Notes: generated from the letters alone by a model not told the origin. Counted from the stretch's first letter, positions 4,715 through 47,145 are shown. The stretch: 49,721 nucleotides of DNA from Psammoneis japonica (GCA_008632985.1 QPGO01000345.1:1-49721); one strand, 5' to 3'. Translations and numbers: made by a program.

Positions 4715-5059
4715 TTCCTTTGGTGGATGCAGCATTGCGAATTTTTTCTTTTTTCCAGTTCACAGGACATTCCATCCCCGTGAATTCTGAAATGGACTCT
4801 GGACTGTACTTTCGTCTCTACTAGGGTAGAGAGATAATGTTAGCATCAAATTTACGTATGTGACCCGCGCAATGAAGTTGCTTGACTCGATTATTCCTAG
4901 CTCTACCGTATGAAATGAAAATAGCATGCTAATGAGAGCGATAGAGCACTGTGAGAATGACGGAGTAGCTTGCTGAATACTGGCTGTATCTAGTCTAAAA
5001 TGACTGCCGGTGTGGCGCATTAATGAAGTTGTTTGTAAGTTTCGTCGCTGGCGGTAAGA

Positions 5060-17850: not shown

Positions 17851-17959
17851 AGAGCATTGTTGACTCTTTTTTTTAACAGGACAACTGCTTTTTTTTCTTT
17901 CCTGCAGCAGTGCCCTTTTTCTTGCTGGATGCCATGGCTGGACTGCACAAACAAAGATG

Positions 17960-18746: not shown

Positions 18747-18750
18747 TCCT

Positions 18751-19720: not shown

Positions 19721-20239
19721 AATGCCCCCCACACCTGCTTGTCTCAACCACACCTGTGCCCTCCTTTCCAGCTCCATCACATCTCTTGGCTCTTGTGCCC
19801 GTCATTCACCTTGCCCCCCCCCCTGGCACCACACTCAATCATCAATCACCCCAGTGCCAAGACCCCACTTGTGCTTCTGGCTCTGGCTCGCTCCTCTCCC
19901 TTTTGCTCACACTCACCCTTTCCTTCGTTGACCCCGCTGCTGGCCCCAAAGCAGCTGCTGGATTTTGTTCCCCATCCAACATGCCATGCATCTGGTCCTC
20001 AGAATTTGCCCCCAGCTTCTCATCTGACAAGGCTGCTTCCTTTGCCAAGAGGACCTTTTTTGCCCTCCTGCAGCTCAACTTGCTTCTGATGAACAAACTC
20101 AAAGTGTGCTCTTGTGCTTTTGCTGATGATGCCCTGTCCCTCCTGTCACCCACCTCCTCTCTGCTGAGGACATTTGCTGCAACTTTTCATCATTTTGAGG
20201 ATCATTTTAAGTCCAGTCAAATCTCTTCCACCGGGCCTT

Positions 20240-21140
20240 GCATTTTGCCAACATGTCATTGTTTGCAAAGCTTGAGTGCCAAAATTGTCAAGATTGGCTT
20301 GCCCTTCCCATGGACTGAGATCCTGCTCTTGTTTGGCATTCAACAACTCATTTTGCTTGATGGCATGTCATCTCGTGAGGTGGCACAGGTGGTGTTGCCA
20401 GTCAAGTCTGGAGGTCAGGGCATGTCAAATGCATGTCTCTGGCCTGGATTCCATGTTGCTCCTGTGTTTCTGACTGTGGGGAGTTGCCTGTTTGCTTGAC
20501 CCATCAGGACACAGCTGTTGAGACAGACAGCAGGAGCACTTGTCTGCAAAGTGGCAAAAGCTTGCCAAGCAGATCATGCAGTTGATGGAACTTGGGGTTT
20601 GGGGCTCCATTGCACCATCAATGTGGTGCAGCAAGTCTTCACTTGCAGGGCGTGTTGATTTGGCATGCAGTTGACTCACAAGTTCTTTTGTTGTCTTGAC
20701 AGCGCATCTCCCCTTTTTCTTTCTGGGGTGGCTGTCCACCCCAAAAATGGGAAAAAGCTGGAGCGCCATCTTTTGTGGCACTCTTGAGGCAATGTTGCCC
20801 TGTGCAACCAGTTTCTGTGTCAACTGCTGACATTGGTGTGCAGCAATCCTTGTTTGTGCACAAGCCAGTCAATGGACTGCAATGACTGCAGTCGCATTTG
20901 AAGCATTGTTGCATGCTTTCATGTTGTCATTTCTGTTTTTGCACCACACTGCTGCTCTCTTTCTTTCAGATGTCATCTCTCAAGAGTTTCTTTCTTGTCT
21001 GGGGCCCACGGTGTGGTGTTTGGTGCTGCATGTCCCAAGGTTTGTGGCTGGCATGTGCACAGGACCACTCAGGCACGGATCGCCTCCTGTGTGTTTTTTG
21101 TGGATTCATTGCACCCTGACTTGCAATGACACACTGTAAA
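20240..21140 (+). repeat. Hypermutated copy of the repeat at 22450-23385
   Basis: Collinear with 22450-23385, for example gtcaatggactgcaatg vs gtcaatagactacgatg, and ccctgtgcaaccagtttctgtgt vs ccctacgcaaccgatttctatat. Confidence 0.9.
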
Positions 21141-21289
21141 ATGCACATGTCCAAAGTTGCTTCTGGCATTGATTGTTCAATGGGCCAGCCCAAGAGGCTG
21201 TGGGACAAGGTTGGTGCACACCTGGAGCTGAGGACACTGCAAGGCCACTCTCTTCCACCCTTTTGTCATTCTTGTAAAATGACACAGCA

Positions 21290-21560
21290 GCACTTGCATT
21301 GTTGCCAGTTTTTTTGCTTGTGTGGGGTGGACTCCAATCACATTGTCAAAGTCTGCCTTGGTTGCTCCCATCTTGACAGCTGCCACAACACCTTGCAGCC
21401 ACATTGTTTCTCCGGCTTGATCTGTTGCCAGCAGAAGAACTCCGGCCATCTTGTCTCAGTGTCAGTTGCTGTCTGAATGAAGACAATTTGATGTGGTGTG
21501 CATTTCTGACTTTGGAAAGGAGTGCATCATTGGTCAAAATTTAGTCATGCATGCTGTCAC
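21290..21560 (-). pseudogene. Glutathione-reductase-like C-terminal (dimerisation domain) fragment
   Basis: [40 protein letters not shown] matches the GR signature [27 protein letters not shown]. Confidence 0.75.
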
Positions 21561-22291
21561 ATTTTTGAGCATCCTCTTCTGCATGCCCGACAGATGCAGT
21601 TGCTGCAAACACCCCACAGATTCTTCAACATTGCAAACCCACTCAAATCAAAGAAATGACATGACTCTGTTGAAAGCTCTTGTTCTTGTGCAAGATTGAT
21701 GTGGCCACAAAGCCAAGACTTGCACCCTGTTGCTGTTTCAGTTTCTTGGGTTTTGATTTCTTCATCCAAGAACTCTGATGGGATCTTCGATGCTTTCTTT
21801 CGAAACCCTGACAAGTCATGTGTTGCTGTTGGATTGGAGTTGCCACTGTCGTTCACATCCATCTTTGCTGTCATGGCGATCGATCAACACTGCAAACTGC
21901 AACTGCGGTGCAGTGTGAACTGTCGGCATGTTTGATGTTTGAGCTGCTTCGAAGTGTGATGACCTCGATCTCCAAATGGGCTTGCGCTCGCTCGCTCGCT
22001 CGGCGGCAGTTTTCTGCGTCTGTACTTGCGTACGGCTACCGTTGACGAGTTTGGTGGCGGCGGCGGCGGTTTTTGCTTTTTCTAAGTACGGTTACCGTGA
22101 AGCGTACGTAGGAATTCGTAATATTTTTGAAAGTACCAAGATCTCACGAATGTTCTACATACGAAGTGATGGTATCGATTATACAAACATACACAAAAAT
22201 GATAGTGATTGAGAAAATTGGCAACGGTCACGACACAAACCAAAACTCTCGAACGCTTTTTTCTTTCGCGCTCTTCTTTCGCTCACAACTC

Positions 22292-22587
22292 GTCGTCTCG
22301 CACGATGTGTTTGTTGTTTGCCAAGCAGGAACGCAGGCGATCGCCCAGGATGGCTCACCCTTCCTGTGGATAATAGAAAGTCTTCTCTTGCTTGGCAGTT
22401 ATACAACTCATTTTGCTTGATGGCGTGTTGTCTCTCTTTTAAAACTAGTCGTCTCGCACGATGTGTTTGTTGTTTGCCAAGCAACGAATGCCGCGATCGC
22501 CGAGGATGGCTCGCCCTTCTTCTGGAATAGATTGCTCGCTCTTGTTTGGAATTCCACAAATCATTTTGCTTGATGGCGTGTTTTCTC
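22292..22587. repeat. Two-copy tandem repeat, ~150 bp unit
   Basis: gtcgtctcgcacgatgtgtttgttgtttgccaagca...tcattttgcttgatggcgtgtt occurs at ~22292 and ~22448. Confidence 0.85.
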
Positions 22588-23385
22588 AATCGGCGGCGTA
22601 GGTGTTGCCAGTTAAGTCCAGAGGTCGGGGCAAATCGAATGCGTCTCTCCGGCCTTGAGTCCATGTCACTCTCGTGTCTTTGAGCGTAGGAAGTTGCCTG
22701 TTCGCTTGACCCGTCAGGTCACGGCTGTTGAAACAGACAGCAGCGTTCGTCTGTGAAGCAGCAAAAGCTTGCCAAGCAGATCATACCGTTGACGGAACAC
22801 AGGTTTGGGGTTCTGTCGTGTCATTGACATGATGCGGTAAGTCTTCACTCGTAGGGAGTGTTGATTTAGAACGCGGTTGACTCGCAAGTTTTCTTGCTGT
22901 CTCCGTAGTACGTCCCCCCTTTTTCTTTTTTTTGGGATGTTGATCCACCCCGAAAATAGGAAAAAGCTTGAGCGCTATCTTCTGATGGCGCTCTTGAGGC
23001 AACGTCACCCTACGCAACCGATTTCTATATCAACTTTTGACGTTGGTGTGTTTCAAATTTTGAAACACTCTTTGAAACTATTCCAATACAAGTAGAAAGA
23101 CTAAAAGTACAAGATAGCAATCTTTATTCTTGCGTAATGTATTCCGTACGTACGTCAATAGACTACGATGGCGGTCGTAGCGCTTGCGATGTCGTTGTTT
23201 CTGTTTTAGTACTACACCGCTCCCCTCTTTCTTTCAGATGGGGTCCACGCTGGGGTGGTCATTACGGGATGCCCCCAGGCTTGTCATCGATATGTGCTGG
23301 ACTATTGCGACGCTAATCGCCCGCTTCCCTCGGGGTTATGCGAGCCATCTCAATTACAAAGTAGCTAGCTACGATGCTCTGTAGA
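22450..23385 (+). repeat. Unmutated (TA/CG-retaining) copy of the repeat at 20240-21140, probably TE-derived
   Basis: Aligns to 20240-21140 with an extra AT-rich insert of ~65 bp at ~23051-23115. Its reading frames are broken and the family was not identified. Confidence 0.8.
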
Positions 23386-23519
23386 CAGGAACGTAATATT
23401 CGAAATTCCCGAGCGTTCCGGGTTTTGCTCGTGAATGAAGACAGTAAAGAAAACAAATCTAGAGATAGTGCTATGAGATAGCAGTCAACACCCGCAATAC
23501 ACCAAATGAAAAAAGTCTA

Positions 23520-23945
23520 ATGGAGTCACGCAACGTCGTGTCCACGCCGATTTCTAGTTCCAATGGATGTTGTCCAAACCAGAGCTACTTCCGATACCGG
23601 TATCTCAACTACGCCAACCCACTTTCGGAAGAGATGGTGGGCGATTCAATATTCTTTTTGAATGTTGATGGCATCCTCCACGCGATGTATGTCATTGTGA
23701 AATACATTGCTGAGCATGATGCAAATCATCCGTGGCACAGGTATTCTTCAAAAAACCAAGGGCGGTACAAGTTCCAAATGGACTTAGCGCTAGAGATGAT
23801 GAGCCAATGGATCAAGCTTGATTGGAAAGACACGGGAATTGAAGAATCAAAACCAAAACGGATGAGGAAACTTGGGTACATTCCATGCGACTGCAAAGAA
23901 TGCTTCTTATGTAAAGAGGGACTTACCCATGGCATCGGTGGAAGC
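23520..23945 (+). mobile_element. Putative piggyBac-like transposase C-terminal fragment
   Basis: HAMYVI...W..YSSKNQGRYKFQMDLALEMM..WIKLDW...YIPCDCKECFLCKEGLTHGI resembles the Cys-rich tails of diatom piggyBac-like transposases (from memory). No catalytic core is present. Confidence 0.4.
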
Positions 23946-24789: not shown

Positions 24790-25315
24790 GGAACTGCAAG
24801 ATGAGACGCTGTGGTTGCGACGCTGGAGCAGTGCGGCTTCTGATGTCATTGTGGCTGTTGATGTTGTGTGTTGTGTGTGGGCAAAAATTATGCGCGTGCG
24901 CGCGATTCGGGAGAAACAAAGAACGAAGAAGGATGGAACTTCTCATTGGACTTGCGCCACCAACCAACCATGGTTGGATGGTTGAGTGTGTTGTCTTTGG
25001 TGGCTGGAAGAACAGGAAGCCCCGCCTGTCCCTCATCATCATTTTGGCACAGTGGAGATTCCCAGCTGCAGAGCCTTGGGTGTCACAAAAAAGTGACAAA
25101 GAAATTGTGCAGCTGCTTTGGCTGGGATGGTGGTTGTGGACTCTGTTGGGGGTTTCTGGCGATGACACAACAAGAACTGTGGTTGGGCAATGCAAGCCTT
25201 GTCTTGGGTGGACACAGCACCTTGTTGTCAGACCAAGATTGTGCCGCATCAGTCATGCTGCAGAAACAAGGCAGACAATGATGAGACAGTGCGCAAGTCC
25301 ACAGTTGCACTGCAA
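24790..25315. other. Small TpA-depleted island (domain C)
   Basis: About 520 bp with a single TA by my reading (~24889), TG/CA-rich, between normal-composition flanks. Confidence 0.7.
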
Positions 25316-29499: not shown

Positions 29500-30027
29500 T
29501 GTCAAACACATTCAAACTGGCAGCACCTTTGTCAGTCAGGTTCCTTGATTGGAAAATAAGCAAAGTGTTTCTCCCCTCCAGAAGCCAGAAAGTTGGCAAC
29601 AACAACATCAATTCTCTTGCTGGTGATTGAAGCGACCCTCCCTGTGAACTTTTGGGCGCGGGGGGGGGGGGGGGGGGGGTCTCCAATTTTCCATTGCCTG
29701 TCATCTGTGGGTGGTGAAGGCCTGCTTGTGCTCTGCTCACCTTCTTGCTTTCCAGCCTCCAACTCTTCAGTGGCCCTTGCCTTGAATGACCTCTGCCTTT
29801 CTCACTGAACTGGTTTTTCTTCTGCTCAGCAACCAATCTGAGGCTGTGCTTCTGATCTGGGAGATGCTCTGAAAAAAGCACCACTCTCCCAGCCTGCGCC
29901 ATCATGAAAGACATTTCTGGCAACAGCTTGCCTTGTGCCAAGATTTTCAGTGGTGTCATTTCTGAAAAAATGACATGTTGACATCCCTCTCAAAGTTTGA
30001 GAAGTCTGGTGGGTGAGTTGACACTGC
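29500..30027 (+). repeat. Direct repeat copy 1 (~530 bp, partner at 32662-33231)
   Basis: tgtcaaacaca...ttccattgcctgtcatctgtg...gttgacactgc. The 3' ~340 bp are nearly identical to 32885-33231. Confidence 0.9.
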
Positions 30028-30249
30028 TCTCTCCAGCTGCTCTGAGGGGCCTGGGCCTGCAAGAGCCTCTTCCTCTTCCTCGCTCAAGAGCACTCTTTGT
30101 GCCCCAAAGGCCAGTCTCAAAGGGTTGAGCACAGTTTGGGTGGCTTGCTCAACTGGAGCTGTGGTGGCAGAGCAACCTCCAGGAAGAAGCGCACAAAAGC
30201 AAGAAGCATGGTTTGTGGTGACAGAGCAGCCTCTGTGAGGAGTGCAGAG

Positions 30250-31460
30250 CTGTGCAGTGGCCAGGTGTCAGCCAGCAGAAAAAGTCTCTTCTGACAAAGT
30301 GTTTGCAGAGAACCCTGGCGGCATGGTGTCAGTCAGCAGAAAAAGTCATTTTTGCCAAAGTGTTTGCAGTGCTGTCTTCTGAGCTTGCTTTCCACATCCC
30401 AAGGAACACTCAAAGCATTGAGCGCAGTTTGGGTGGTGGTTTGCTGGTGGAGTGTGGCTGTGGCACCAGAGCAAAATTTAGGCAGCCCATGCAGAGAGGC
30501 CCAGTGTCAAAGTGTTGGCCACAAGAAAAAGTCCCTTCTGCCAGACTTTTTGCACTCTCAGCTTCTGAGCCCACACTTTGCGCACCAATGTGCAACCTCA
30601 AAGGCTTGGGCACAGCTTGGGTGGGTTTCTTTTTGGCTGTGGTTGCACTGGCAGAGCAGCCTCTGAGTGTGCAGAGAACCCCAGTGACTGTGGTTGCACT
30701 GGCAGAGCAGCCTCTGAGTGTGCAGAGAACCCTGGTGAAAAAGTGTCAGCCAGCAGAAAAAGTCACTTCTGCCAAAGTGTTTGCAGTCTTGTCTTCTGAG
30801 CTTGCTTTCCGCATCCCAAGGAGCCATCTCAAAGGGCTGAGCATGGTTTGGGCAGTGGTTTGATGGAGTGTGACTGTGGTGCCAGTGCAAAATTTGGGCA
30901 GCCCATGCAGAGAGGCCCAGTGCGGTCAAAGTGTTGGCCACAAGAAAAAGTCACTTTTGCCAGACTGTTTGCACTCTCAGCTTCTGTGCCCACATTTTGC
31001 ATGCCAGTGTGCAACCTCAAAGGCTTGGGCGCAGTTTGGGTGGGTTTCTTGGCTGTGGTTGCACTGGCAGCAGAGCAGCCTCTGGGTGTGCAGAGAACCC
31101 TGGTGGCAAAGTGTGTCAGCCAGTGGAAAAAGTCACTTCTGCCAAAGTGTTTGCAGTCTCATCTTCTGAACTTGCTTTCCACATCCCCCAAGGAACACTC
31201 AAAGGGCTGAACACAGCTCAGGTTGGCTCTTTCTTGACTGTGGTTGTGGTGGTGGCAGAGCAGCCTCTGTGTGTGCAGAAATCTTGTGTGTGATGACCAG
31301 GTGTCAGCCAGTGGAAAAAGTTGCTTCCAACTGATGCAAATGGTTTGCAGCCCAAGCTTCTGAGCACACTCAGTCTGTCCCCAGGCACAATCTCAATTCA
31401 TTGAGGAGCAAGTGTTGGCCAGCAGCAGAAAAGCCCCTTCTGACAAATTGTCTGCACTCT
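30250..31460. repeat. Degenerate tandem array (~370-430 bp higher-order units with short subrepeats)
   Basis: Recurrent gtgtcagccagcagaaaaagtcacttctgccaaagtgtttgcagt, cagcccatgcagagaggcccagtg and ggttgcactggcagagcagcctctg. Confidence 0.85.
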
Positions 31461-32661
31461 CAGCTTCCTCCACACACCCAAAAGCACAAACTTCTTGAGG
31501 GTCATCTTCTTTTTTTTGGCTCAACATTGCCCCAGCCTGACTGCAGGTGAGTCAGACTTGATCTTTCTATCTGGACAATGGACACCCCAAGTCATCAGCT
31601 GGGAGTTCTGACCAACTCACTCTGGCCCAGGGGTGGCCTTAAAGAGCATTCATTGTGGTTGGCTTGGTCCATCCTCTGTTGTTTTTTTTTTGGCCTGACA
31701 TTGCCCCAGACCAAGAGCAACAAACAAATCAAACAGTTGTCAGCTGAGAGTTCTGGCTGGCTTGCTCACTGCGTGATCCAGAAGCAGACTTTCAAAGTCT
31801 GCCCCTTGTTGAAAGAATTCATTGCAGCTGCCTTCTTGACTCATCTGGAGTTGTTTTTTGGCCCAAAATTGTCCCACGCTGCCAGCTGAGGGGTCTGTCC
31901 AACTCACTGTGTTGTCCCTGGGGGGCTGACTTTGAGAGCATTCATTCTTGTGGTTGCCTTGGTGATGGACACCCCAAGTGCAACAAACTGACCATGCAGT
32001 TGTCAGCCAAGGGCTCCAGCCAATTTGCCAATTTGCTGTGACCCAGGGTTTGTGGGCTTTAAGAGCATTCATTGTGACTGCCTTGGTTCGTCCTGCGGTG
32101 TTGCTTGTTTTGGCTGTGTGATGACACAGCCCAACAGTGGATGCAACATGACATTCCCTCTTGCAAGTGTTGAGCACCTCAAGAGGCAATGAAGTTTGCT
32201 GACATGCAGCAGCTGCTTGCCTTGTTCTTTCCAACCAAGAAGCACATGCAGTTTTTGGAAAAATGGGAGAATTCAACCACACTTCCAATGTTCTGCAACA
32301 ACAGCAGATGGGACACATTGCACCAACAAATGCTGAGCTTTGGGACAGACAACCACAGGCTGGCCCTCAGAAAGGCTGGGAAAACAAGTGCTGCTGCTTA
32401 AGAGTCATCATCTTTGCACACTCATGCTCTGAGGCATCTTGCTTCTGCTGGGATTCTTTCATTCAAGTTTGGTCACAAAATGAACCCCAGGTGAGCTTTG
32501 CTTGATTTTTCTTCTTTCTGCTGGCAACCATCAACAACTTGCCAATTGGAGCATGCAAGTGATGTCACTCCTCCACACATCAAGCACAAAAAGACCAGCA
32601 GTCTCATCAACTTCAAATGTTTCAACAGCTTCTTTGTGCAGCCATTGACCTCCTCTTTTTG

Positions 32662-33231
32662 TGTCAAACACATGCAAGCTGGCAGCACCTGTGTTGGCTG
32701 GGTTCATTGATTGGAGAACAAGCAAAGTGAGCTCCCCTCCAGAAGTCAAAAAGTCAGCAACAATGTTGTCAATTCTGGTGCAGGTGAGCTGGCCCTCTTT
32801 GTGAACTTTTGGGTGGAGAATGTTGTCCAAGATGGAGTCATTTCAGCTGCCTGTCCTTTTTGTGATCTGATTTCCAAGACACTCTTTTCCATTGCCTGTC
32901 ATCTGTGTGGGTGGTGAAGGCCTGCTTGTGCTCTGCTCACCTTCTTGCTTTCCAGCCTCCAACTCTTCAGTGGCCCTTGCCTTGAATGACCTCTGCCTTT
33001 CTTGCTGAGCTGGTCTTTCTTCTGCTCAGCAACCAATCTGAGGCTGTGCTTCTGATCTGGGAGATGCTCTGAAAAAAGCACCATTCTCCCAGCCTGTGCC
33101 ATCATGAAAGACATTTCTGGCAACAGCATGCCTTGTGCCAAGATTTTCAGTGGTGTCATTTCTGAAAAAATGACATGTTGACATCCCTCTCAAAGTTTGA
33201 GAAGTGAGTCTGGTGGGTGAGTTGACACTGC
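32662..33231 (+). repeat. Direct repeat copy 2 (partner at 29500-30027)
   Basis: Near-identical minus-strand ORFs 29492..29959 and 32899..33159 (MTPLKILAQG.LLPEMSF...). Confidence 0.9.
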
Positions 33232-35905
33232 CATCATGACACAGTTCCTGATGACAAGATTTGTTTGCTTGTGATGCTCTTTCTGGAAAAATGTTCTGCT
33301 GGCATCCCTTTTGCAGTTTGAAAAGTCTGACAGGAGGTGAGTCAAGACCCCTTCTCTCACTGGCACTCCAAGGGAGGATCCACAGGTCCCTCATCTTCCT
33401 CAGCCAAATGAGCAAAGTCAGCGGCAGTGTGTGCCCTGTCTCTCTTCTTGACACTCTGGCCACCATTGCCCATGGGGGCAGTGGCTTGGGTGGAGGGCTC
33501 CCCTTTTTGCAGAGCCTGGGCATGCCCTCTGGTTCTGGCACCTTTGTCTGCATCTGGCCAGCTGGGATGTTGTCACAATGTGGTTTGTGTTTGCCTCTCA
33601 CAAACAATGCAGGAGTGCCAGGCTGAATTGCACACTTTTGACAACTGCAAGAACACTCACCTGTCTGCGCCAGCTGCACATTTTCTGTGCTTGCCCACAA
33701 CGTGCACCACCCTGTCATCCCTTTGAGCAAACCCACCACAGATCACCTTGTGGCAGCAAGTCAAGAGCTCTGAACAGCAGCAAAATGGGTTGTCACCACC
33801 CTTTTCACATGGCATGAGATGGAGTGTCTTGGGCTGTGGGAGGTCTGGGACAAGGAGCGCTCTTCTCCTGCATGTTGCAGATGGCCTGGCCATCAGGTCT
33901 GATGGGGGGGGGGGGGGGGCAGTGGCGGGTCTCCTGCTCTAACAGCTTCTGCCATTTGACAGAGATGGGAGGTCTTGGACTGCAGATCTGAGGCAAGGAG
34001 TGTTTGCGTGTTGAAGAAGACCCTGGCCACATCTGAGAGGGGGTGGCACAGAGGGTCTTGCCCTGCTTGAACAGCTCTGTTTCTGCCATCTTGTTCAAGC
34101 CAAGAGCTGGGTGGCACAGCAGTGATTGGTGTGTTGTGAGACCAGCCAGTTGGCAATGTTGATGAGAGAGCAGCAAAAAATGTGGTTGCATTGTGGGCCA
34201 AAAAGCAACAACAACAAAGAGTGCTGACAATGGGATGGCACCAGCACGCCCCTTGCAGACGCATTGAGGGAAAACAAGCTGCAATGCTGGTTGCACACAC
34301 CAGTTGTTCAAACACATGTCACAATCGGTTTTTGATTGACAACACATTTTTGGAAGTGAATGTGCACACATTAAAATGCAGACAAGCAAAATTTCAAATT
34401 GCCAAAATTTTGAACACAAATTTGTTTGTCCTTGGAAATGCAACACCACAATTTTGACCCAAGAAAACTCATCCAAAGCACAACAACCAAACCAATCATC
34501 ACAATCCAAGAAGCAACAACACCATGGCCTTGTGATGCATTGTCAGGCCACAGATCCAGGAGGGCACTGCTTGACTTGCTTCAGCAAGTTCATTGTGTTG
34601 TTGTCATTGCTGCTGCAGCTGTTGAATCTAATTCTTTGTGGCGTGCCTTTCAATGAGCACAGGAGAGAGCACGCAATGATGCACGGTGCAGCAAACCCCA
34701 CTGCCAACAACATTGCCACTGACAGGAGTGCAGGAACCCAAAAAATGGAAGAAGGGGTGAGCACAGTTTGGTGTTGTCATTGCCATCATTCCAGCCATTG
34801 AATCCAATCATTTCATTTTTGCATGCTTTTCAACCATGCATGTCAAAGGACGCAGAGAGCGACAACAGCCTGGAGGCTTCTTTGTCACATGGCGCAGTGC
34901 ACCCCAATGCCAACAATGTTGCCACTGGCAGGAATGGTTGAACCCAAGAAGCAGCAGAGTCCTTCATGGCAGGGGCAGTGAATGGATGTTGGGGTGAAGG
35001 GTGAAGCAAACTGGCTTGATTTTTCTTGACACACATGCACACATGTGTGCATGTCCTTTTCCAAGTGTCCTCAATGCTCAACAGCTCTGCTTTTTGCACT
35101 TCAGCAGAGACATCACAATTGACCACAAACTGGAACATTTGGCAAGTCATCCTCAGAACAGCTCTCTTTTCCTTTTCTGGTGACTCACACCAATTGTTTT
35201 TCCCTCTTGCATGCACTGCCACGGAGCATCCAATGAGGTGCAAAAGAAGAGAGCGTGCAAAACCACCATTCTTGCAGCAAGGGCCACAACAAATCCTTTG
35301 TGAACAAGTCTCAGGATGATGGTGCATGCTGCAAGACAGAGACACAGGAAGAGGCTTGACGATTGAAAGTTTTCTTTTTGCATTGACGATCACAAGAAAC
35401 TGTGTGGTGGAGCGAGTGCTGTGGAACTTCAGCTCCACCAATGTGTGATGACCCAGTTTGTTTGATTGCATCTCAATTGATCCTCTGTTGATGTCATGGT
35501 TGTCAGTGCTGCAGCATGCAAATGCATTGCACCGCAGTTGAGAGTGATGCTGTGCCAGATGCATGGTCCACAGGAACAGAGGAGAGCACTGATTCCTGGT
35601 GTTCCAGAAGCGGGCCGTCCCCCAGAAGATTGGAGGAACCCTCAAACCCAGAAATGTGAGACAGCAACTTGGCACCCAGGAACAAAAACCAGCAACATCC
35701 AAGAAGGACCACCCAGAAATTCACCTGGAGAAAGGTGAAAAATCCAGCAATGTGACAAGCAAAACCCCACCTCCCCAGTGATCTCCTCCAGAAAACACGC
35801 CATGTGGCATCCAAAGTCATGCACAATGAAGTGTGCTCAGGAAATCCAGAAACTCCAAGGACATCATTTCTGGAACTCTCGCGTGCAGTGCAGCCACTGG
35901 ACGAG

Positions 35906-35907
<2 letters not shown>

Positions 35908-35938
<31 letters not shown>
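35908..35938. repeat. (GA)n microsatellite
   Basis: About 15 GA units. Confidence 0.95.
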
Positions 35939-35939
<1 letters not shown>

Positions 35940-36749
35940 AGCAGCACCTGGCATTGTGGAGCAGCAGCCACTTCCTCCAGCAAGTGACAATTGCACTGCT
36001 TCTGCGTAAATTGTCTTGAAAGGAAAAGCATCCATGACCCACAACCTGCCACCATCAAAACATCACATGGAAATGCTGCGGCAACAAGATGATCACTCGT
36101 GCCATCAAATTCCACTTTCTGTGATGATGGCATTCCATGCCATGGACCCTCCTCCACCAAATCCAAGTGTCTGCTCAGTTGGTGCGCTGGTGCAGGTGGT
36201 GCCGGAACACTGCACGGGACAACCTGACAGCAAAGGTGGGGTCAGCTTTGTCACTGAATTCAACACTGCCAATGGCCCAACGAATGTGTGGCACACAGGT
36301 GACAAAAGTCACAACCCCTCTCACTTCAAGAAGAAGACCAACTTGAAGAGAAAGAGCTTTCAAAAAGTCACAACCCCTCTCACTTTAAGAAGAAGACCAA
36401 CTTGAACTTTGCTGAACAGCAATGCTTGCAATGCAGTGTTTGAACATGTCAAGGAGAGTGTCATCCATTGCACACAGAAAGAGTGTGTGCAAGGCATGCA
36501 TTTGACAAGATCTTCAACAGACTGAAACGCAAGGACTGTGGTTCTGAGAGACCTGCCCTGGGCATGTTCGCAATGACAGCACCAGCGGACACACAGCTGA
36601 AGATTGTCAAACCAAGATGGAAGAGAGCAAGCAAGTGGCAAGACACCAAAAGAGTTGAAAACCAGCACAAAGCAGAGCCACACAAGCACAATGACAAGCA
36701 CACTTGCCAAGATCTCAGATGACTGCTGTGCCAAGCAAATGAAGCAGAG

Positions 36750-38330
36750 AGTGCAGGGTGACCCCAGTCACCCAAACACAATGCAGGGATGATCAAATCA
36801 ACTTGTTGATGCTGATCCAGTCCCTGTTGGAGCATCTAGATTTGGGCTTTAGAGAACCGGGAAGAGATGAATTTGAAGAAAAAAGACACGCAGCATCCCA
36901 ACCCCAACATTTTCCTCAACATGAGGTCAACACCCATCCAAACACCTGCCAAGTCCCTGAAGAGCATGCTGAGTGCAAGGGAACAAGAGAACAAGTTGCC
37001 GAGCAGTTGCCTGTCAGGATTCAAGCATCAGAGGAATGGCACTGCAAGGGAGGGTCTAAGAGACAGAGAACGTCAGCAGACAGATTTGTTTCCAATGCCA
37101 AGGAGTGCAAGGGCAAAGGTGCTGCAATGGTCCACAGAATGCTGAAAGAGACAGAATTCAAGACATGGGTGACATTCCTGTTTGCAGAGAACAGCAACGA
37201 ACATTGCTGCAAGAGCTTGGAGAAGAGCTTCTTGAGAGACTGCAGCCTGGGCAAGGACACACCACCTGTCCAAAGACATGACTGGAGGACACTGGACAAG
37301 GCAATGGACGTGCTGCTGAACCATCCTAAAGACAAAATCCTTCCAAGCAACACAATGAGAGGAACAACAAGCACACAAGCAACAACAACAGCAAAATTGA
37401 GAACAAGAGTGAGAGGTCTGGCATTCCAAAGGGCCAGAGCCATGCCCAGAAGAGCAGCCAGAGCAACACTGCAGTGTGTTGCTGCAGCAACCAACCAAAT
37501 CACAAGCTCAAAGATGGAAATCAGGGGACAGAGCCATGTGCAGACATGAGGTGATGACCACCCATTGGCAGACAGTGCCGACACAAGCATTGAGCCACCA
37601 GATCCAACCAATCAACCCGCTCCAGCTGAGGCAAGAGTGCTGCATGGCAAGGCTTGCAACAGGAAAACAAGAGGCCAGAGATGAGCATGAGAACCAAGCC
37701 AACCACAGAAATCAAAGTGGATGAAATCATCCTCAACAATGGCTCCACAACCTCCTGCATGGCAGCAAGCCAGAGACTGGTGCACAATGTGCAACAAGCA
37801 AAGACCAAGGTTGATCTGTTTGTGGGCACAGCAGTGGACACTTTGGATGAAGACTGCACCATGTCTGGATGGGGGGACATGAAGCCGGGGTCACAGAACA
37901 TGACAGCAAGCATCCCCAGTTCAAAAGATGAGAAGAGCAAGCACTGTGTCACATGCAACAACTGAGTGGCATGGATGGCTGAGTTCTGATTGCCAGAGGA
38001 CAAGAAGACTGGCAAACAAGTTGTGGTGTTCAAAGTGAATGACATCAGACCATGTGCCTTTGCACAAAGCAAGAAGTTGTTTGACCACACAAAACATCTC
38101 CAAGAAGCAAGTTGCACACAAGCATGCTGTTTTGCAGAACAAGAACAAGAGAACAAGAAGCACAGGAGTGCAAGGCTCAGGCTGTGCTGCAAAGCTGGAG
38201 CACCCAGTGTGAGGGATTTCAAGCCATTTTTGCATTCAAGCCACCAGGTGAAGAACAGGATGATGGCCATTTGACAGATGATGTTGAAGAAGAAACAAGA
38301 GAAAATGGAAATGTTCTCTGCTGTTGCTGG
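36750..38330 (+). mobile_element. Old degenerate Ty1/copia remnant (gag-protease region) of a different diatom lineage
   Basis: RTLDKAMDVLLNH (gag), EIILNNGSTTS...LVHNVQQAKTKVDL (protease, cf. ILLDNGST), EQENKK..ARLRLCCKAGAPSVRDFK (cf. AR.LY..LG.PS..DFK). No LTRs found. Confidence 0.55.
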
Positions 38331-39493
38331 TTGCAACTAGCAGCCCTGGGTTTGTGGCAAGGATTGTGGACAAAGAGATGCCAGTTGATGATGAAAGCAC
38401 ATGAGGACATCAAACTGTGGAACCCTGAAGCACTTGAGGCCTCATCCAGCTCCAGGTGACGCACAATCCACCATGCAAAAGGGTGCAGTTTAGCATGTCA
38501 AACTCCTTCAAATTTGATTTTTTTGAAAATCGAAATGCAAGTGTGCACACAAACACACGAGCTTTGTGTGCACTTGCCCTTCGATCATTTTTTGAGCGAG
38601 TTCATTGTGCCAAGTGCACAAATGGCCAGTGATGGGAATCAAACCTCCTCTCTGTGCATCACCTGCTGGAGCTGGAACAGGCCTTGAGCACATGTCCCCA
38701 CCATCATGCCAATGTTTCCATCCACAACAATTTGAGAGCATTCATCTGAGACTGTGCAACATGCTTGGAAGGCACGCAAGAGGGAGTTTTGGCAAATTGT
38801 TGGAAGCTGAGTCACGAGGCAAGGAAAATTTGGACAACGCACAAAGATGGCAAAGAGAACATGAAAGATGAGCATGCCACTGGATTGACAGGCAATGAGG
38901 AGCTGCAAGAATTGGCCCTTTAAAAGAGCTGCATTGATGGCTTGCACAAGACATCAAAGATCGGCTGCCCTGCTCCTGTGGCATGGACAAACATGAGTGT
39001 GTGCCCCCCTCATGTGACTCAATGCCAGCCACTGTCCTGAAGCTGTGCTGAGTTGTTGCAGGTTTCTTGCAAGCAGTGCAGACAGCGCCATTTGTGCAAC
39101 ACTGTCAAAGCTTGTGCTGCTCTTCCACCGTGGTGTCAACCGCACAAACCCTGCACACAGGTGGCTCTGTCACAGTGTTGAGTTCTTCGACTTGAATCCT
39201 GAGATGGTCAGCAGCTGGGTTGCAAACCTGGTTGATGGTTGATGGTTCACACAGTGAAGAGAGATTTCATCATGCTCGTGTGGAACATTTTTTGCAGAGC
39301 TTGGCCCAGCAACATGGTCAGCCACTCTCCTGATGATGTGCGGCACGCGCCAGCTTGCAAGTCTGGGGCCAGCGCAACATTGGCATGAGTGGCGGGAGTG
39401 TGCTGGAGCAGCGCCCAGATCATGGGAAATGCAAAGAACCCAGACACACTGAAGAAATGATGCCATCGCTCCTGACATGGCTCATTTGGCAAT

Positions 39494-39582
39494 TCTTTGT
39501 GAGCAAGATTTCATTGTCACCAGTTTCTCTCACCTCTCAGCTCTTTGTGAGCAAGATTTCATTGTCACCAGTTTCTCTCACC
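39494..39582. repeat. 48-bp tandem duplication, second unit interrupted by the copia insertion
   Basis: Unit tctttgtgagcaagatttcattgtcaccagtttctctcacctctcagc starts at 39494 and again at 39542. The second unit resumes as tctcagc at 46709 after the element. Confidence 0.92.
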
Positions 39583-39858
39583 TGACAGGATTTGAACAGG
39601 ATTTGGATGCGCGCGAAGTGTCGCGCGCTGTTTAGTTTACCGCGCACAGTTTTGTGTGCTTTAGTTCCGCGCGTTCACGCGCGATGTAGTTTGCTTTCGA
39701 GCCACAAGGCTCACAAGAATAATAACAGTAGCCCGATTATACCGACTTACACGTCTTTCGGCTCCTGTAACGGTCTCTGAGCGGAGACTCATCTGCTATT
39801 TAGACAGCAGTAAGGAGTTATTGTTTGAATTCTTGCCATTTGCCTTCATTTTCTATCA
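39583..39858 (+). repeat. 5' LTR (276 bp)
   Basis: TGACAGG...TTCTATCA, 270/276 identical to the 3' LTR. Confidence 0.97.
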
Positions 39859-39873
39859 GATTAACAGTCTTGC
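39859..39873 (+). promoter_or_regulatory. Putative primer-binding site complementary to the tRNA-Asn(GUU) anticodon arm
   Basis: GATTAACAGTC directly after the LTR is the reverse complement of GACTGTTAATC. There is no canonical TGG start. Confidence 0.55.
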
Positions 39874-40804
39874 TCATTGTCAACCCATTGAGCAACCGCC
39901 ATCGTCGTCGTTGATTTACCGACGACGCTATTTCAATTCTGCGTGGACCTCCGTATATATTCTACATACATCGGCAAGTCTACGCGCGTTCAATACCAGG
40001 CATCGGCAGGAATTTAACGTCACCGTCAAGTCTCCTTACCGCTGGATATCTGGATTGATTATACTACCTTCGGTCGCTGAAGACTTATATTCAACGGTCA
40101 TATCCAAGTCTATCCTTGATCAACATCCCTTGATATACCTATTCCTCGGTTAACGGTCAAGAACCCTACACATTCAAGGATCTTAGTCGCTGAAGACATA
40201 TATATATATACATGTACATGTCTTCACGGCCAAGAACCTTTATCCACTCTTCGGACTGCGGTTTTGCTGCCACTCTACAAGCACACCGAGTCCATTGCAC
40301 CTGATCTACCCCGGACTGCTGGTGCTCTACAGTTCCACTGGGTCCACGAGGACGACTGTGAGAGCAAGTGGCCGTGATTGCAGCCTGCGTTGGGGCGAGG
40401 GTGCTTTCCCGCGTTTGTTCGTTCGTCCACAGCGCCCCAACGCCTGCGTCAACTGGCCAGCCTGATCGGGAAATCCAACCGACATAAAAACAAGAACGGT
40501 TCGGGGGTCTTGTCCACCTCCAGTCAGCTTGCCTGCAGGGGTTTACAACCCGCTGCTCCGCTCGCAAGCAACCCAAAGCGCCGCTGGCTGCGGGTTCGGA
40601 CGTGCCGGCACAACTCTGCGGACCGGACAGGAAGTTTAGCACTTGACAACGAACGGGACAACAAAGCCCGGCGACTTCTGATTTTAAGATGGTTCAAGAT
40701 TTCAAGTCAAGTCTGTTTCAAGTCAAGTCCATTCTCGCCCAAGTTTCGAGTCCACCTTCGCTTCCCAACCAGAATTGATTGTCCTGACACCACTTTTGTC
40801 TGCC

Positions 40805-41930
40805 ATGGTTCTCACTCGTCAGCAACAAACCGATGGTTTCGAGCATGTTGTTGGAACCGTGCTTGCCCAAGGTGCTGGGAGTCCTCTTCGTTTGGCTTTG
40901 GCCCAAGACGGCACGGACTCGCATCAGGAACTGTTCACGTTCATGCCGCCCCAAATCGACTGGCTTGAGCACGACAACGGCACCAATGCAATCCCTTTGC
41001 CCCGTGGTTACAAGAACATGTTAGCAGCGCTGGTTAGTCTGCACATTGTCAAAGCACACAAAGGTCTTGACGTTGCCAACGACTCCTCTTTGTTCACGCA
41101 TGATGAGTTCCTTGCCTGCCGCCTCAGCCCCGACTGCATGTCTTCTGTGTCCATCGGCAGCTCACCCCTTGCACCTCCACATGTCACCAACCCGACCAAG
41201 GCACGCGACCTGGTGCGAGACTTCAAGCGAGGCATCAAGCGTGATCCCACCGCTTTCACGGCTCTCAAATCCGACAAGCAGTGGCACACTTGGCACACCT
41301 CACTTGTGGCACAAGCCCGTGCCCAAGACGTCGAGTGCATTCTAGACTCATCGTACAAACCGACCAGCCCCGAAGACAAACTGCTCTTTGCTGAACAGCA
41401 AAAGTGCATGTTCGCCGTCTTCGAACGCATCCTTCTCACCGACAAGGGCAAGGCTCTCATTCGCGAAAATGTGGGGTCTTCTGACGCACAGACCGTCTGC
41501 CGCTCCTTGTCTGAGTGCGCGCTTGCCTCCACCCGCGCATCTGTCGAGTCCTCCACCCTGCTCACGCACCTCACCACCGCACGTCTTGGTGATGGCACTT
41601 GGAAAGGTCCGACCCACGGGTTCATCCTTCATTGGCAAGATCAGTTGCGCAAGTGCGAGGCACTCATCCCCCGCCAGTGACCACTTCTCTGAAGGACAGA
41701 AGCGCGTCATGCTCGAGAATGCCGTGCACCCTGTCGAGGAACTCCGTGCTGTCAAGAACCAAGCTGATCAGCATCGTACACAGAGTGGCAAGAGCCTCAC
41801 ATGCGATCAATGCTGTGGCTTGCTCCTCTCCGCGGCAGCTCAGCACGACAGCACGTTTCAACCCAAGACGACACCCAGAGCTCCCCGACGCGCCACACAT
41901 GCACACGACGTCCCCACTCCGAGGAACCGT
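40805..41930 (+). pseudogene. gag: copia gag, frameshifted at ~41670
   Basis: DFKRGIKRDPTAF..LK.DKQW..W...AQARAQDV..ILD, TDKGKALIR, FILHWQDQLR, MLENAV. Confidence 0.85.
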
Positions 41931-44900
41931 CCGACGATGTGTTCTACGACATTGACAGCGACGTTGACGTCCTTCAAGCCAATGCTGCCCACACCCGCGG
42001 TCCCAGCCTCGCCGGTGTCCAATGGAGACGTCTCCCTCCCGACCACCAACGGCTCTGGGATTCGTTGCCCGATTCCTCCAAGGCGATCATCCTTGAGCAT
42101 TCTCGTCCGCCTCCCCGCAACCCGCGAGCCAGCAACTGCCATGAGTCTGTTGCGGCCAACCTTCACGACCAACACCTTGGGAGTGACAGTGATGTCAACT
42201 TGTCCAACACGACTCCTGCTGACTGTGGTGACTCCGCTGCACATGTGGACGCCACTTCGGACAATCCCATCCTGGCGCACCTCACCAAGCGCAAGCCACT
42301 GCCACCCAGTGATCTGCAACGTCTGTTGTCACCCAACCAAGCCCCCAATGCCAGTCGACCGGGGCCATCCGCCGCTTCCTCTGCCCCGCCAGCTCCTGCA
42401 GATGACACAGAACTTGACGGCCGCACTTGCCGCCGCGTCAACAACCACAATGTCATTTGCTCTGCCTCTGCTCATCGCTCCACACGCACTGGCGCTCTAG
42501 TCGATCGTGGGGCCAACGGCGGCATTGCTGGCGACGACGTTCGCGTCATTGCACGCACCTCTCGCCAAGTCGACGTTCAGGGCATTGACGATCACCAATT
42601 GGTGGACATCCCCATTGTCACCGCTGGTGCCGTCATTGAGACCCAGCGTGGTCCCGTCATCGCCATCCTCCATCAGTGCGCATGCACGGGAAAGGGCAAG
42701 ACCATCCATTCCTGCGGCCAGCTCGAATGGCACAAACAGGATGTCAACGATCGCTCTGTCAAGGTGCCCAACGGCTTGCAACGCATTGCCACTCCTGATG
42801 GCTGTGTCATCCCCATTGACATCAAGGCTGGCCTGCCTTGTGTTGCCATGCGACCTTACACTGATGCCGAATGGGACACCCTGCCCCATGTCATCCTCAC
42901 CGGTGATGACACATGGGACCCTTCCGTCCTCGATCACTCTGTCACTGACGACGACCAGTGGTGCGACGCGATCTCTGACCTGCAGGACGATCCCACCGCC
43001 AACCCATTTGACGAATGCGGCAACTGCCGTCACCGTGTCGTTGTCAACGAGACCATCTTGTCCGCTTCCTTGTCTGCCGATCACGCGTCCGCCCTCGATG
43101 ATCACCTCATTCTGAACGACGACGTGTTCTCCGAGTGTCATCTACATGCGATTGACCCCCAGGGCGATGACGTTCCACCTCCGGAGCGCACTGCACAGCC
43201 CAAGGACCCCCCCTTCGAGTCTCTTCGGCCTCACTTTGGCTTCCCACCCACCGATGCGGTCCGTCGCACTTTTGACTGCACCACGCAGTGCGCCCGCATG
43301 CCCGCCGGCACACACCTTCGCAAGGCCTACAAATCACCCAACCCCGCCCTTGATGTGCACCGCCGCAACGAGCCCATCGCCACTGACACCGTTTGTGCCG
43401 ACACCCCGGCCGTCGACCATGGTTGCACCAGCGCCCAACTGTTTGTTGGCACCGAGTCTACCGTCACTGACGTCTACGGCACTGAGACGGACAAAGAGTT
43501 TGTCAACACACTCGAGGATCAGATCCGTGAACGTGGTGCCCCATCCAAACTCATTAGCGACCGTGCTCAAGTTGAGATCAGCAACAAAGTGCTCGGGATC
43601 CTACGCGCCCTCTTCATCTCCAGCTGGCAAAGTGAGCCTCACCAGCAACACCAAAACTTTGCCGAGCGTCGATGCCAGACCGTGAAGCGCATGGCGAACA
43701 CTGTCATGGACCGTTTTGGTTCGCCCGCCCACACATGGCTGCTGGCGCTCATGCACGTGTGCTTCACACTCAACCACACAGCGTCCCCACGTCTCCACTG
43801 GCGCACGCCCCTCGAGACTCTCACTGGATCCACCCCGGACATCAGCCCATTGCTTCGCTTTCACTGGTGGGAACCAGTGTGCTTCCACCTCGATGACTCT
43901 GATTGGCCGTCCGAATCCCGTGAGTTGCGTGGACGCTTCGTTGGCATTGCTGAGCACGTCGGCCACCAGATGACCTTCAAGATCCCATCTGACGAGACTC
44001 AGAAGATCCTCTGCCGGTCCAACGTTCGCTCCGCTGCCCCCGATCCTGCCGTTCGAAACCTGCGTCTTGATCCTCCTGATGGGGAGCCACCTGAACCCAT
44101 CATCAAATCTCGCCATGATGACAACCCCATCGATTCTCCTGATGGGGAGGGTCAGGACACCCAAGATGCCAGTTTTCGATCCGCAAGACATCATTGGACG
44201 TACCTTCCTCATGCAGCCACAAGAGGACGGACAACGCCACAGAGCTCGCATCGTCAAGGCCGTCGAAGACCACGAATGGAAAGTGAACGGCAATCCCGAG
44301 CTCACTAAGTTCGTCTGCTCTGTCAACAATGACGAACCACGAGGAAGTCCTTGCCCACAATGACATCATGAATCACATTGAGCAAGAAGACGAAGACACC
44401 ACCATTTGGAAATTTCGACGCATCGCATCACACGAAGGACCTCTGAAGCCTCACGACCCAACCTGGAAAGGCTCAAGCTACAACATCATGCTTGAATGGG
44501 AAAGTGGGGAGATCACGTCCGAGCCTCTTGCCATCATCGCCAAGGACGACCCCGTCACCTGTGCCATCTGTGCACGAGAGAACGGACTCCTCGACACGGA
44601 TGGCTGGAAGCGGTTCCGCACTGTCGCGAGGCGCCAAAAGAAGCCATTTCGCATGGCCAACCAAGCCAAGCTTCGCTCCTTCCGCACTGCACCTCGCCAC
44701 AAGTGCGGATGCGAAGTTCCCCGGAACTGCAAACACGCCATGTCACTAGACGAACGCAACGGCAACCGCAAGTGGGGAGACGCAACTAATCTCGAGATGG
44801 ACCAACTCGACGAATGCAAAGTCTTCCATGACTGCGGGCCCTTCAAGTCTTCCACTCCTCCTGCGGGACACAAGAAGATCCGAGTGCACCTGGTGCACGA

Positions 44901-46427
44901 CGTGAAACACGACGGTCGCCACAAGGCACGACTCGCAGCCGACGGGCACCTCACGGACGCCACCTGTCGACAGTGTCTGCTCCGGAGTGGTCTCCCTCCG
45001 TGGCCTTCGGCTGATGATTTTCCTGGCCGAACTCAACGAGCTGGAGACATGGGCCACCGACATTGGCAATGCCTGCCTTGAAGCCACCACCAAGGAGAAG
45101 CTTTACATTGCAGCTGGACCCGAATTTGGCAAACTCGAAGGACACATCCTTGTCATCCACAAGGCACTGCATGGACTGCGCAGCTCCGGTCTCCGCTGGC
45201 ACGAGCGCTTCGCCGACTGCCTGCAAGCTGAAGGCTTCTTCCCCTGCCGCGCCGAACCCGACATTTGGATGCGCAGGAACGGCGACCACTGTGAACACAT
45301 TGCCGTTTATGTGGATGACCTCGCCATTGCCATGAAGGACCCTCAATCTTTCGTCGACACTCTCACGGAAAAGTGCAAGTTCAAGCTCAAGGGTGCGGGA
45401 CCCATTGAGTTCCATCTGGGTTGCAACTTTTCCCGGGACCCCGACGGAACCTTGTGCCTGTCTCCGCGCAAGTACATCGAGCGCATGGTCGACAGTTGCG
45501 CCCGACTGTTTGGGGAGAAACCCACCACCAACGCCCTGTCACCTCCAGAGAAGGGTGACCACCCCGAACTGGACACTTCCAAACTGCTGGGACCCGATGG
45601 CATTCACAAGTTCCAGTCTCTTGTTGGTTCACTCCAATGGGCAGTGTCCCTTGGTCGAATTGACATTGCCACGGCTGTCATGTCACTCTCTAGCTTCCGA
45701 GCTGCGCCCCGTCAAGGCCACTTGGATCGTGCCAAACGCGTCTGTGGGTGCCTCTCCAAGATGCGACACGGTGCTCTCCGCGTTCGCACGGAAGAGCCCG
45801 ACTGTTCGGATCTCCCTGCTCCGGCCTGTGAATGGATGCATTCCGTGTGTGGTGAAGCAGAAGAGATGATCCCGAAGGACGCTCCACCGCCCCTTGGCAA
45901 GTTCGTCACTGCCACCCACTACGTCGATGCAAACTTGCACCATTGCATGCTCACCGGACGCTCTGTCATGGGAATGCTCCACTTCCTCAACAAATTCCCG
46001 GCTGATTGGTTCTCCAAGAAACAAGCCACCGTGGAGACTGCAACCTGCGGATCTGAATTTGTTGCCGCAAGGAATTGTGTTGAGCAGATTGTCGACCTGC
46101 GCATCACCCTGCGCCACCTTGGCGTCCCGATCCGCAATGTCAGTTGCATGTTCGGTGACAACAAGTCGGTTGTAGACAGTGCCACCATCCCGCACTCCAA
46201 GTTACACAAGCAACACACCGCACCATCGTTCCACCGTGTGCGTGAGGCAATTGCCTCTGGTTGCCTTGAGTTCCACTTCATCGAAGGCTCCCGCAACCCT
46301 GCTGACATTCTCAGCAAGCATTGGGGTTGCTCCCAAATCTGGGACCTTCTCCGCCCCCTCATGTTCTGGAACTTCATTCCATCCGAAGTCGAATCTGTTT
46401 CTGTGGCTCCTCAAGCAAACTGGGGAG
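41930..46427 (+). pseudogene. pol: copia pol (protease, integrase, RT, RNase H) with several frameshifts and Tyr->Cys/His changes
   Basis: LVDRGANGG (PR), IATDTV / LISDRAQ / SEPHQQHQNFAER (IN DDE), DGRHKARL, DIGNACLEA, KALHGLRSSG, IAVYVDDL (RT), YVDAN, GSEFVA, FGDNKSV, NPADILSK (RNase H). Frame changes at ~44170, ~44335 and ~44960. Confidence 0.93.
46417..46427 (+). promoter_or_regulatory. Short polypurine tract
   Basis: AAACTGGGGAG immediately 5' of the 3' LTR. Confidence 0.65.
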
Positions 46428-46703
46428 TGACAGGATTTGAACAGGATTTGGATGCGCGCGAAGTGTCGCGCGCTGTTTAGTTTACCGCGCACAGTTTTGT
46501 GTGCTTTAGTTCCGCGCGTTCACGCGCGATGCAGTTTGCTTTCGAGCCACAAGGCTCACAAGAATGATGACAGTGGCCCGATTGTACCGACTTACACGTC
46601 TTTCGGCTCCTGTAACGGTCTCTGAGCGGAGACTCATCTGCTATTTAGACAGCAGTAAGGAGTTGTTGTTTGAATTCTTGCCATTTGCCTTCATTTTCTA
46701 TCA
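46428..46703 (+). repeat. 3' LTR (276 bp)
   Basis: Matches 39583-39858 except at 6 positions and is followed by TSD TCACC. Confidence 0.97.
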
Positions 46704-47145
46704 TCACCTCTCAGCTTGATCTCACTCTACAGTGGCATGATGGACGGCGGCATGGAGACAGCAGTAAATCTTATGTCAGTGTCTATACCCGAATGATTTT
46801 TAAAAACCAGCAACCGTTGAGTTATTCTCAACGGAAGTTGAAGTTGATAGTCAATTGATGTTCTAAGACATCACTGCATGTCTGTATGTGTGGTGGCCAC
46901 GCAACGATTTGCTTCTTCTTTCTTCCGTCCTTTGTCCTTTCTCTTCGGCACTCGGCATGGCGTTGCTGTTGGAAACGGTACTGTAGGTAGGTACCCTTGT
47001 TTTGCAACCAAACGGCTTAGCTATGCTTTGTGGATGGACAGTGTTGCACGCTAGAATTGTAAAACGTAGATCTTGGCAATTCCTCTTCACTCACTTGTTT
47101 TACCTCTCATCTCACTTTCTCAAAAGCCGACTCGCTGATTTCATC

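Follow-up and report, generated by a model that had tools for sequence, protein, structure and literature searches.

Do TpA and CpG dinucleotides disappear from the mobile DNA of a diatom on two separate clocks, or do both losses follow one common exposure? This question is raised by a Ty1/copia retrotransposon (39583-46703) in a 49,721-nucleotide stretch of Psammoneis japonica DNA (GCA_008632985.1 QPGO01000345.1:1-49721), which is referred to as a whole as the window. A first-pass annotation described the element body as TA-poor and still CpG-rich, and proposed that TpA loss precedes CpG loss as two separable clocks. Comparison of 37 copies of the element family shows that TpA is lost about 30-50 times faster per dinucleotide than CpG, and that the two losses scale together.

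The copia element in the window

The element adjoins a sulfatase gene at the right edge of an old repeat domain (domain D, below). It has the hallmarks of Ty1/copia: direct long terminal repeats (LTRs) of the form TG...CA, a 5-bp target duplication, and an RVT_2-type reverse transcriptase. Its features are as follows, with TpA content given as sites kept or as the observed/expected ratio (o/e).

39578-39582, + strand: target-site duplication, left copy, 5 bp; identical 5 bases stand at both element ends
39583-39858, + strand: 5' LTR, 276 bp, TG...CA; 16/20 family TA sites kept, TpA mostly spared
39859-40300, + strand: first part of the 5' leader; TpA o/e 1.05, 31/37 sites kept in the window copy
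40301-40799, + strand: remainder of the leader, TpA-hit; 6/27 sites kept
40800-46427, + strand: Ty1/copia gag-pol body; several open frames in the window copy
44969-45496, + strand: reverse transcriptase, Pfam RVT_2 (PF07727), E 3e-20
46428-46703, + strand: 3' LTR; 6 differences from the 5' LTR, all TA to TG/CA in the 3' LTR
46704-46708, + strand: target-site duplication, right copy, 5 bp; matches the left copy

A Pfam search of three frames upstream of the reverse transcriptase, at the integrase position, gave no match. The two LTRs differ at 6/276 sites, every one TA versus TG/CA; the few LTR differences and the target duplication indicate that the element is young. A tandem duplication of about 45-50 bp, which contains the target-site sequence, lies just left of the 5' LTR (39490-39587).

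The body (40800-46430) contains 27 TA against 249 expected (o/e 0.11) and 411 CG against 459 expected (o/e 0.90); the minimum TA count in 500 base shuffles was 216. The motifs cited in the annotation as examples of its CpG richness were located at 42429 (gccgccgcgtc) and at 43411 and 45352 (cgtcgac), and the description of the body as TA-poor yet CpG-rich is correct. The four gene-like stretches between the domains have TA o/e of 0.55-0.61 and CG o/e of 0.94-0.99. The starting TpA o/e of the family was probably only about 0.5-0.6 (0.49 in the least-hit copy). At the family sites of the body, the window copy has changed 119/146 TA (62 to TG, 57 to CA) and 19/427 CG.

Direction and timing of the TpA loss

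The family set comprised 37 full-length copies, namely 13 initial copies and 24 of 40 further fetched stretches. The remaining 16 stretches did not align as one full-length piece and were excluded; eight partial loci were also unused. The copies were chosen by similarity or by reverse-transcriptase score, and thus represent the young end of the family. Body sites were classed column by column (146 TA and 427 CG), with 21 ambiguous columns excluded. Across the set, the body TA sites read TA in 1925 cases, TG in 2117, CA in 1329 and CG in 2; the body CG sites read CG in 15114 cases, TG in 379, CA in 274 and TA in 0.

The LTR pairs of these copies differ at 306 TA-class dinucleotides, 41 CG-class dinucleotides and 32 other sites. 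The outcome of a loss, TG or CA, was shared at a level of 0.72 between sister copies and 0.69 among all pairs. Since the LTRs of one copy are identical at insertion, and sister outcomes are no more alike than the others, TA is changed to TG or CA after insertion, in chromosomal DNA and on both strands. Neighbouring TA hits formed no strand runs in the 13 copies (0.54 versus a null of 0.53), and no strand relation between neighbouring events was found in the 37 copies (p 0.40). The hits are patchy within a copy out to about 200 bp (z 3.5-5.2). In the window comparison, genes were spared and mobile regions were hit; the exception is a host gene duplicate inside a domain.

These data also bear on whether the changes are assembly artefacts, or stem from editing or error in the RNA or during reverse transcription. 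The element is indeed a retrotransposon, and its A>G changes outside TA are about twice its C>T changes outside CpG, which such an origin might explain. It is however already refuted by the LTR pairs, whose members differ from each other at TA, and by the two-strand pattern, and it can hardly be given any credence. Moreover, a host gene copy carries the same change, neighbouring genes are normal, and a copy of a second copia family with identical LTRs has intact TA. Among the sequencing runs listed, four DNA runs from a single study carry the sequence, and no RNA run does. Contigs from one sequencing run, compared with the sequence at 99%, had no differing letters; they are short fragments, possibly of the source sample, and give no independent support.

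In the second copia family, the copy with identical LTRs (348 bp; L175, G000:C37:567000-575500) has gene-like TpA content and reads as a very recent insertion that the TpA process has not yet reached. Two further copies (L176, G000:C244:29100-37600; L177, C44:54500-63000) are TA-stripped over their 5' 2.5-3.5 kb and nearly intact in the 3' half. The boundary between hit and spared parts is graded, and looks like spread from the 5' end or from flanking DNA. The spared end is thus opposite in the two families, being the 5' end in the family of the window.

Rates and sequence context

TA retention in the body ranges from 0.88 down to 0.16 per copy, and CpG loss from 0.9% up to 7.5%. Once inherited CpG losses are removed, the ratio of TA dose to CpG dose is 32; restricting it to sites lost in no more than four copies gives 35, and the median TA site gives 52. 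The second family gives about 40 (187/238 TA versus 14/368 CG lost). The annotation's claim of a TpA process much faster than CpG decay is therefore borne out. CpG transitions are 17 times as frequent as non-CpG C>T (1.65% versus 0.095%, 13 copies), as expected of the decay of 5-methylcytosine (5mC). The relative TA rate per A is several hundred times that of A>G outside TA.

The rate of TA loss depends on neighbouring bases. In the young copia family a pyrimidine after the A makes it about threefold faster, and a T at -3 or -4, or an A at +1 or +2, slows it; context accounts for about a quarter of the variance. The non-TA A>G changes show strand symmetry and a weak correlation with TA dose (rho 0.33, p 0.04), a pattern that fits what off-target activity would give. 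A nucleosome-like periodicity of TA site rates, with a peak at about 124 bp, is a hint, no more (global p 0.013 for the 13 copies and 0.068 for the 37); none was found for CpG. The TG share of the changes by codon position is 0.66/0.59/0.49. Selection on coding effect was considered as its cause; it is inseparable from the +1 context bias, and no claim is made.

TpA loss might instead be a by-product of error-prone repair of deaminated 5mCpG, in which mismatch repair and polymerase eta act as in antibody hypermutation. Such repair predicts a coupling of the two losses. One of 16 bins, at 2-10 bp, shows a correlation of site rate with CpG loss (z 2.8), and in the 13 copies a TA was lost more often if the same copy had lost a CpG no more than 15 bp away (z 3.3). 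The latter clustering was gone in the 37 copies with inherited losses removed (z at most 1.05, 7 bins), and was not retained. Polymerase eta hits A after A or T (PMC2213188), whereas singleton A>G changes in the 37 copies stand at 0.17% for AA, 0.17% for CA and 0.13% for GA while TA sites are mostly lost. Neighbouring hits also lack the strand coordination that such repair would bring, and site rate is independent of CpG distance and CpG density. The polymerase eta version is largely refuted, and repair of deaminated CpG in general is very unlikely to be the source. The annotation had likewise argued that TpA loss is probably no by-product of CpG repair. Its conclusion stands on the AA, strand and distance tests; its reason, the retained CpG, proves nothing, because a repaired T:G mismatch leaves CpG intact.

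Coupling of TpA and CpG losses

Across the 37 copies, TA dose is correlated with CpG loss (rho 0.68), and the value is 0.76 for the 404 CG sites lost in at most four copies. It is 0.74 without the four least-hit copies, and likewise after removal of terminal branch length. Sister pairs were concordant for TA and CpG loss in 11/12 cases, and cross-half correlations were 0.49-0.58.

The same relation appears within copies. The leader segment 39859-40300 is TpA-spared in most family copies and hit in a minority; for the 5' LTR and leader segments together, those keeping TA lost 5/1155 CG, and those losing TA lost 14/318 CG. TA-spared cases were few in the remaining two non-body segments, where CpG loss showed no clear contrast. 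In three copies of the second family, TA-hit bins lost 14/368 CG (3.8%) and TA-spared bins 5/504 (1.0%; p 0.008). A survey of 678 non-redundant 500-bp windows, drawn from search hits and not a random genome sample, points the same way. None of the 211 windows with CG o/e below 0.4 has TA o/e of at least 0.3; 99/678 windows have TA below 0.2 with CG of at least 0.6.

Several results weigh against a single shared exposure. Strict proportionality of the two losses fails (chi2 95.6 on 36 degrees of freedom; constant model 121.7), and doses corrected for site rate fit worse (182-202). Other changes are also 1.7-fold higher in the TA-hit bins of the second family. In the many-copy repeat family represented at 22441-23200, five TA-spared copies lost 25/171 CG and 5/92 TA, while six TA-hit copies lost 59/188 CG and 89/100 TA. 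CpG thus also decays, more slowly, where the TpA process is absent, although ascertainment from three reference copies may inflate the figure. This decay agrees with data from Phaeodactylum, where no dinucleotide mutates more readily than CG (PMC6604790). Moreover, background divergence is too sparse for dating the copies (terminal branch length gives rho 0.33-0.36), and part of the coupling may be plain age. Divergence outside TA and CG was also tried as a clock within the young family, where changes of this kind were too scarce (rho with singletons 0.10 and 0.06). Age does not confound the within-copy contrasts, which however have small counts.

The TpA and CpG clocks are therefore mostly not independent; the coupling is loose, and some separability remains. 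The annotation had named joint scaling of the two losses as the result that would speak against its proposal, and in the young range such scaling is found, both across copies and within them. What survives of the two clocks is the rejected proportionality and the CpG decay in TA-spared copies; their independence is not supported. That TpA loss "precedes" CpG loss would then describe a difference in rate under a shared exposure, probably to silenced, methylated chromatin.

TpA and CpG in the older domains

The older parts of the window include the following features.

5001-9000: older domain A; repeat patchwork, TA/CG o/e 0.09/0.35
12400-22000: older domain B; TA/CG o/e 0.07/0.31 (computed over 13001-22000)
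13480-18024: 4.5-kb repeat inside domain B
18028-19723: decayed Rpn9/PSD13-like gene copy inside domain B
20259-20972: decayed copy of the 22441-23200 repeat inside domain B
22441-23200, + strand: TA-intact member of a many-copy repeat family; served as unhit comparator
29500-39577: oldest domain, D; TA/CG o/e 0.03/0.14 (computed over 30001-39500)

The statement that domains A, B and D lack both dinucleotides agrees with these ratios. Outside TA, TG, CA and CG, divergence from relatives is 20/211 in domain A, 4.2% in domain B (43/892 in its Rpn9-like copy) and 81/674 in domain D. The copia LTRs of the 37 copies have 32 non-TA/non-CG differences in 10,195 aligned bases. The domains, at 4-12%, are about ten times or more as diverged, and are older than the copia element. 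The Rpn9/PSD13-like sequence is a duplicate of a proteasome gene. Compared with a TA-intact relative (L056), it has lost 49/57 TA and 58/80 CG. The process thus reaches host gene copies in addition to transposons. This copy shows directly the convergence described in the annotation, in which old repeats end at TG/CA from both sides.

Surviving TA in old DNA are not a random sample of contexts. In 162 old windows, ATAC occurs 0 times per 1963 precursors and GTAC once per 1213, and the 195 surviving TA include 60 TTAA, 53 CTAA and 38 GTAA. The fast contexts are gone and the slow ones kept, which matches the context bias of the young family. Had the process stopped, background mutation would be expected to have restored tens of fast-context TA; TpA removal apparently still acts in the old domains. 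On the other hand, the Rpn9-like copy keeps 8/57 TA against about 2.5% extrapolated from one clock (p 8e-5), and TA in old sequence levels off at an o/e of about 0.03. This excess means that either a class of sites resists the process or the process slows down.

The alternative of two independent clocks would have insertion or homology set off an early or episodic burst of TpA loss, with CpG decay coming later and unrelated to it. The large rate gap, the overdispersion around proportionality, the CpG decay in TA-spared copies and the plateau above extrapolation would all be compatible with it, as would the related process in Bigelowiella (below), described as active in only some lines. Against it stand the covariation at the level of both copies and segments, the lack of deep CpG loss with intact TpA among the surveyed windows, and the absence of fast-context TA from old domains, given the expected regeneration. 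This alternative is already weakened and appears unlikely.

A proposed mechanism and candidate enzymes

For the observed direction, timing after insertion, occurrence on both strands, rates, context bias and coupling, we consider it fairly probable that one silencing-type state drives both a fast A-to-G change at TpA and a slow decay of methylated cytosine. A nuclear, DNA-level process would convert A to G at TpA, at single sites and on either strand of inserted repeats. Copies would be affected only where a certain chromatin state has been established, in patches from about 200 bp up to kilobases. That state would also raise the decay of CpG to TpG, read as deamination of 5mC. The common exposure would be time in the state, so that TpA could be nearly exhausted while CpG is about 95% intact. 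Judging from sequence, the state might be 5mC heterochromatin. The genome encodes several C5 methyltransferase genes. In Phaeodactylum, 75/85 LTR-copia elements are methylated, through DNMT5 (PMC9998398). DNMT5 itself was not specifically singled out among the C5 methyltransferase genes here, which counts against this reading of the state.

The chemistry might tentatively be assigned, with close to an even chance, to deamination of adenine to inosine by a TadA/ADAT-type enzyme, which is favoured by the pure transition and the strict need for a T on the 5' side. In tRNA loops, the A edited by TadA and ADAT2/3 follows a U. Two results speak against this assignment. Engineered TadA has been reported, in one study, with a slight -1 bias only (PMC10085711). 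Moreover, a genome search with PF00383 (9 matches) returned ordinary deaminase genes only, and no dedicated or chromatin-targeted deaminase. The matches include a TadA-like gene with an N-terminal extension and an ADAT2-like exon; some look like deoxycytidine monophosphate deaminases from their translation, and one frame had no solved relative.

The same chromatin gating might also act through another chemistry without a dedicated deaminase. For example, a modified adenine such as N6-methyladenine (6mA), or an alkylation side-product, could be miscopied at TpA, or be cut out and replaced by G. This would account equally well for the hits on both strands and at single sites, the patches and the coupling, and no special deaminase was found in the genome search. 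The near-pure transition (2 CG in 3448 changes), the strict 5' T and the preference for a pyrimidine at +1 are however enzyme-like, and known eukaryotic 6mA lies at ApT in active chromatin, which also counts against it. Such a chemistry is judged rather improbable. In the most specific form of the deaminase reading, CG-methylated heterochromatin would recruit a DNA adenosine deaminase that continuously strips TpA from silenced diatom repeats, as an A-to-G counterpart of repeat-induced point mutation (RIP) across distant SAR (stramenopile, alveolate and rhizarian) lineages. It is a conceivable but doubtful proposal.

Another of the PF00383 matches is a single open frame (L118:313-1785, - strand) that joins a guanine-deaminase-like domain to a 2-oxoglutarate-Fe(II) oxygenase related to thymine dioxygenase; this fusion probably serves nucleobase salvage. 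A group of C5 DNA methyltransferase genes (L128, L129, L130 and L134; G000:C301 and C297) lies in TA-depleted DNA (TA o/e 0.00-0.07, CG 0.68-0.82), with internal stops in some. A mobile or viral insertion, itself undergoing hypermutation, may have brought in the group.

Comparison with known hypermutation systems

For Bigelowiella natans, a preprint describes hypermutation from A:T to G:C, specific to TpA, in integrated DNA of giant viruses and virophages (bioRxiv 10.64898/2026.01.13.699255). The preprint reports a per-generation rate raised about 1000-fold, in only some lines, and proposes an adenosine deaminase (ADAT), as yet unproven. The two processes are alike: the changes are almost only those of TpA to TpG/CpA, occur on both strands in foreign or mobile regions, and leave TpA-depleted clusters. 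However, Bigelowiella is a chlorarachniophyte, on another branch of the supergroup than diatoms. In the diatom the process has nearly exhausted the TpA of multi-copy LTR elements and of a host gene copy; and the preprint measured per-generation rates, whereas the diatom figures are relative rates. A term search of its main text found neither "CpG" nor "diatom"; the rate ratio, CpG coupling, flanking-base bias and patch scale are not in that main text. A literature search for a diatom or stramenopile report, in a collection with few subscription papers, returned only this preprint as relevant.

Fungal RIP, which homologous pairing sets off during the sexual cycle, changes C to T and creates TpA. 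It resembles the diatom process in being a repeat-confined, dinucleotide-specific transition hypermutation, and probably also in its tie to the cytosine-methylation machinery (RID, related to DNMT4). It differs in that TpA is depleted here, with 0 CG-to-TA changes at body CG sites and no strand runs, and in that the diatom process can spare half of a high-identity copy. Diatoms carry DNMT4 relatives (PMC9998398). Deamination of 5mCpG would account for the slow component, with CG going to TG/CA on both strands (379 TG, 274 CA), but does not yield TpA loss. The A:T phase of somatic hypermutation by polymerase eta shares the A-to-G change at TA; it needs a WA motif including AA, and repair patches (PMC2213188), whereas in the diatom AA is unhit and strands are uncoordinated.

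An A-to-G genome-defence signature that lacks an explanation, and had been measured in a single chlorarachniophyte, is thus tied by the diatom data to the regions where CpG decays. Since DNMT5 knockouts exist in diatoms, the coupling can be tested directly there. The context bias (5' T required, pyrimidine after A favoured, T 3-4 bases upstream protective) provides a fingerprint for the enzyme search. About nine in ten LTR differences are of the TA or CG class, and LTR-divergence dating in the Psammoneis japonica genome therefore gives ages about ten times too high. Damaged copies can also look intact, because TpA changes make no stop codons in a coding frame: 12/37 copia copies keep an open frame of 1850 codons or more. 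If a deaminase does read methylation, the TpA/CpG pair would be a two-range readout of the time a repeat has been silenced.

Additional observations

An isolated TA-depleted patch of about 400 bp (24801-25200; TA 0.04, CG 0.57) lies within gene-like DNA of the window. A 2.75-kb segment (20850-23601), which spans the sharp edge of domain B, is 99.3% identical to another contig (L055, G000:C36), and represents either a recent duplication or a second haplotype. The window makes up one entire contig of the 91.4-Mb genome, which has 24 matches to the silicon-transporter family PF03842, in keeping with a diatom host. Elsewhere in the genome, a 1511-codon open frame contains three silicon-transporter domains (G000:C38:226311-230342). 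Imperfect tandem repeats with a spacing of about 185-230 bp occur in domain D (30240-31330), and recur in longer arrays on other contigs.

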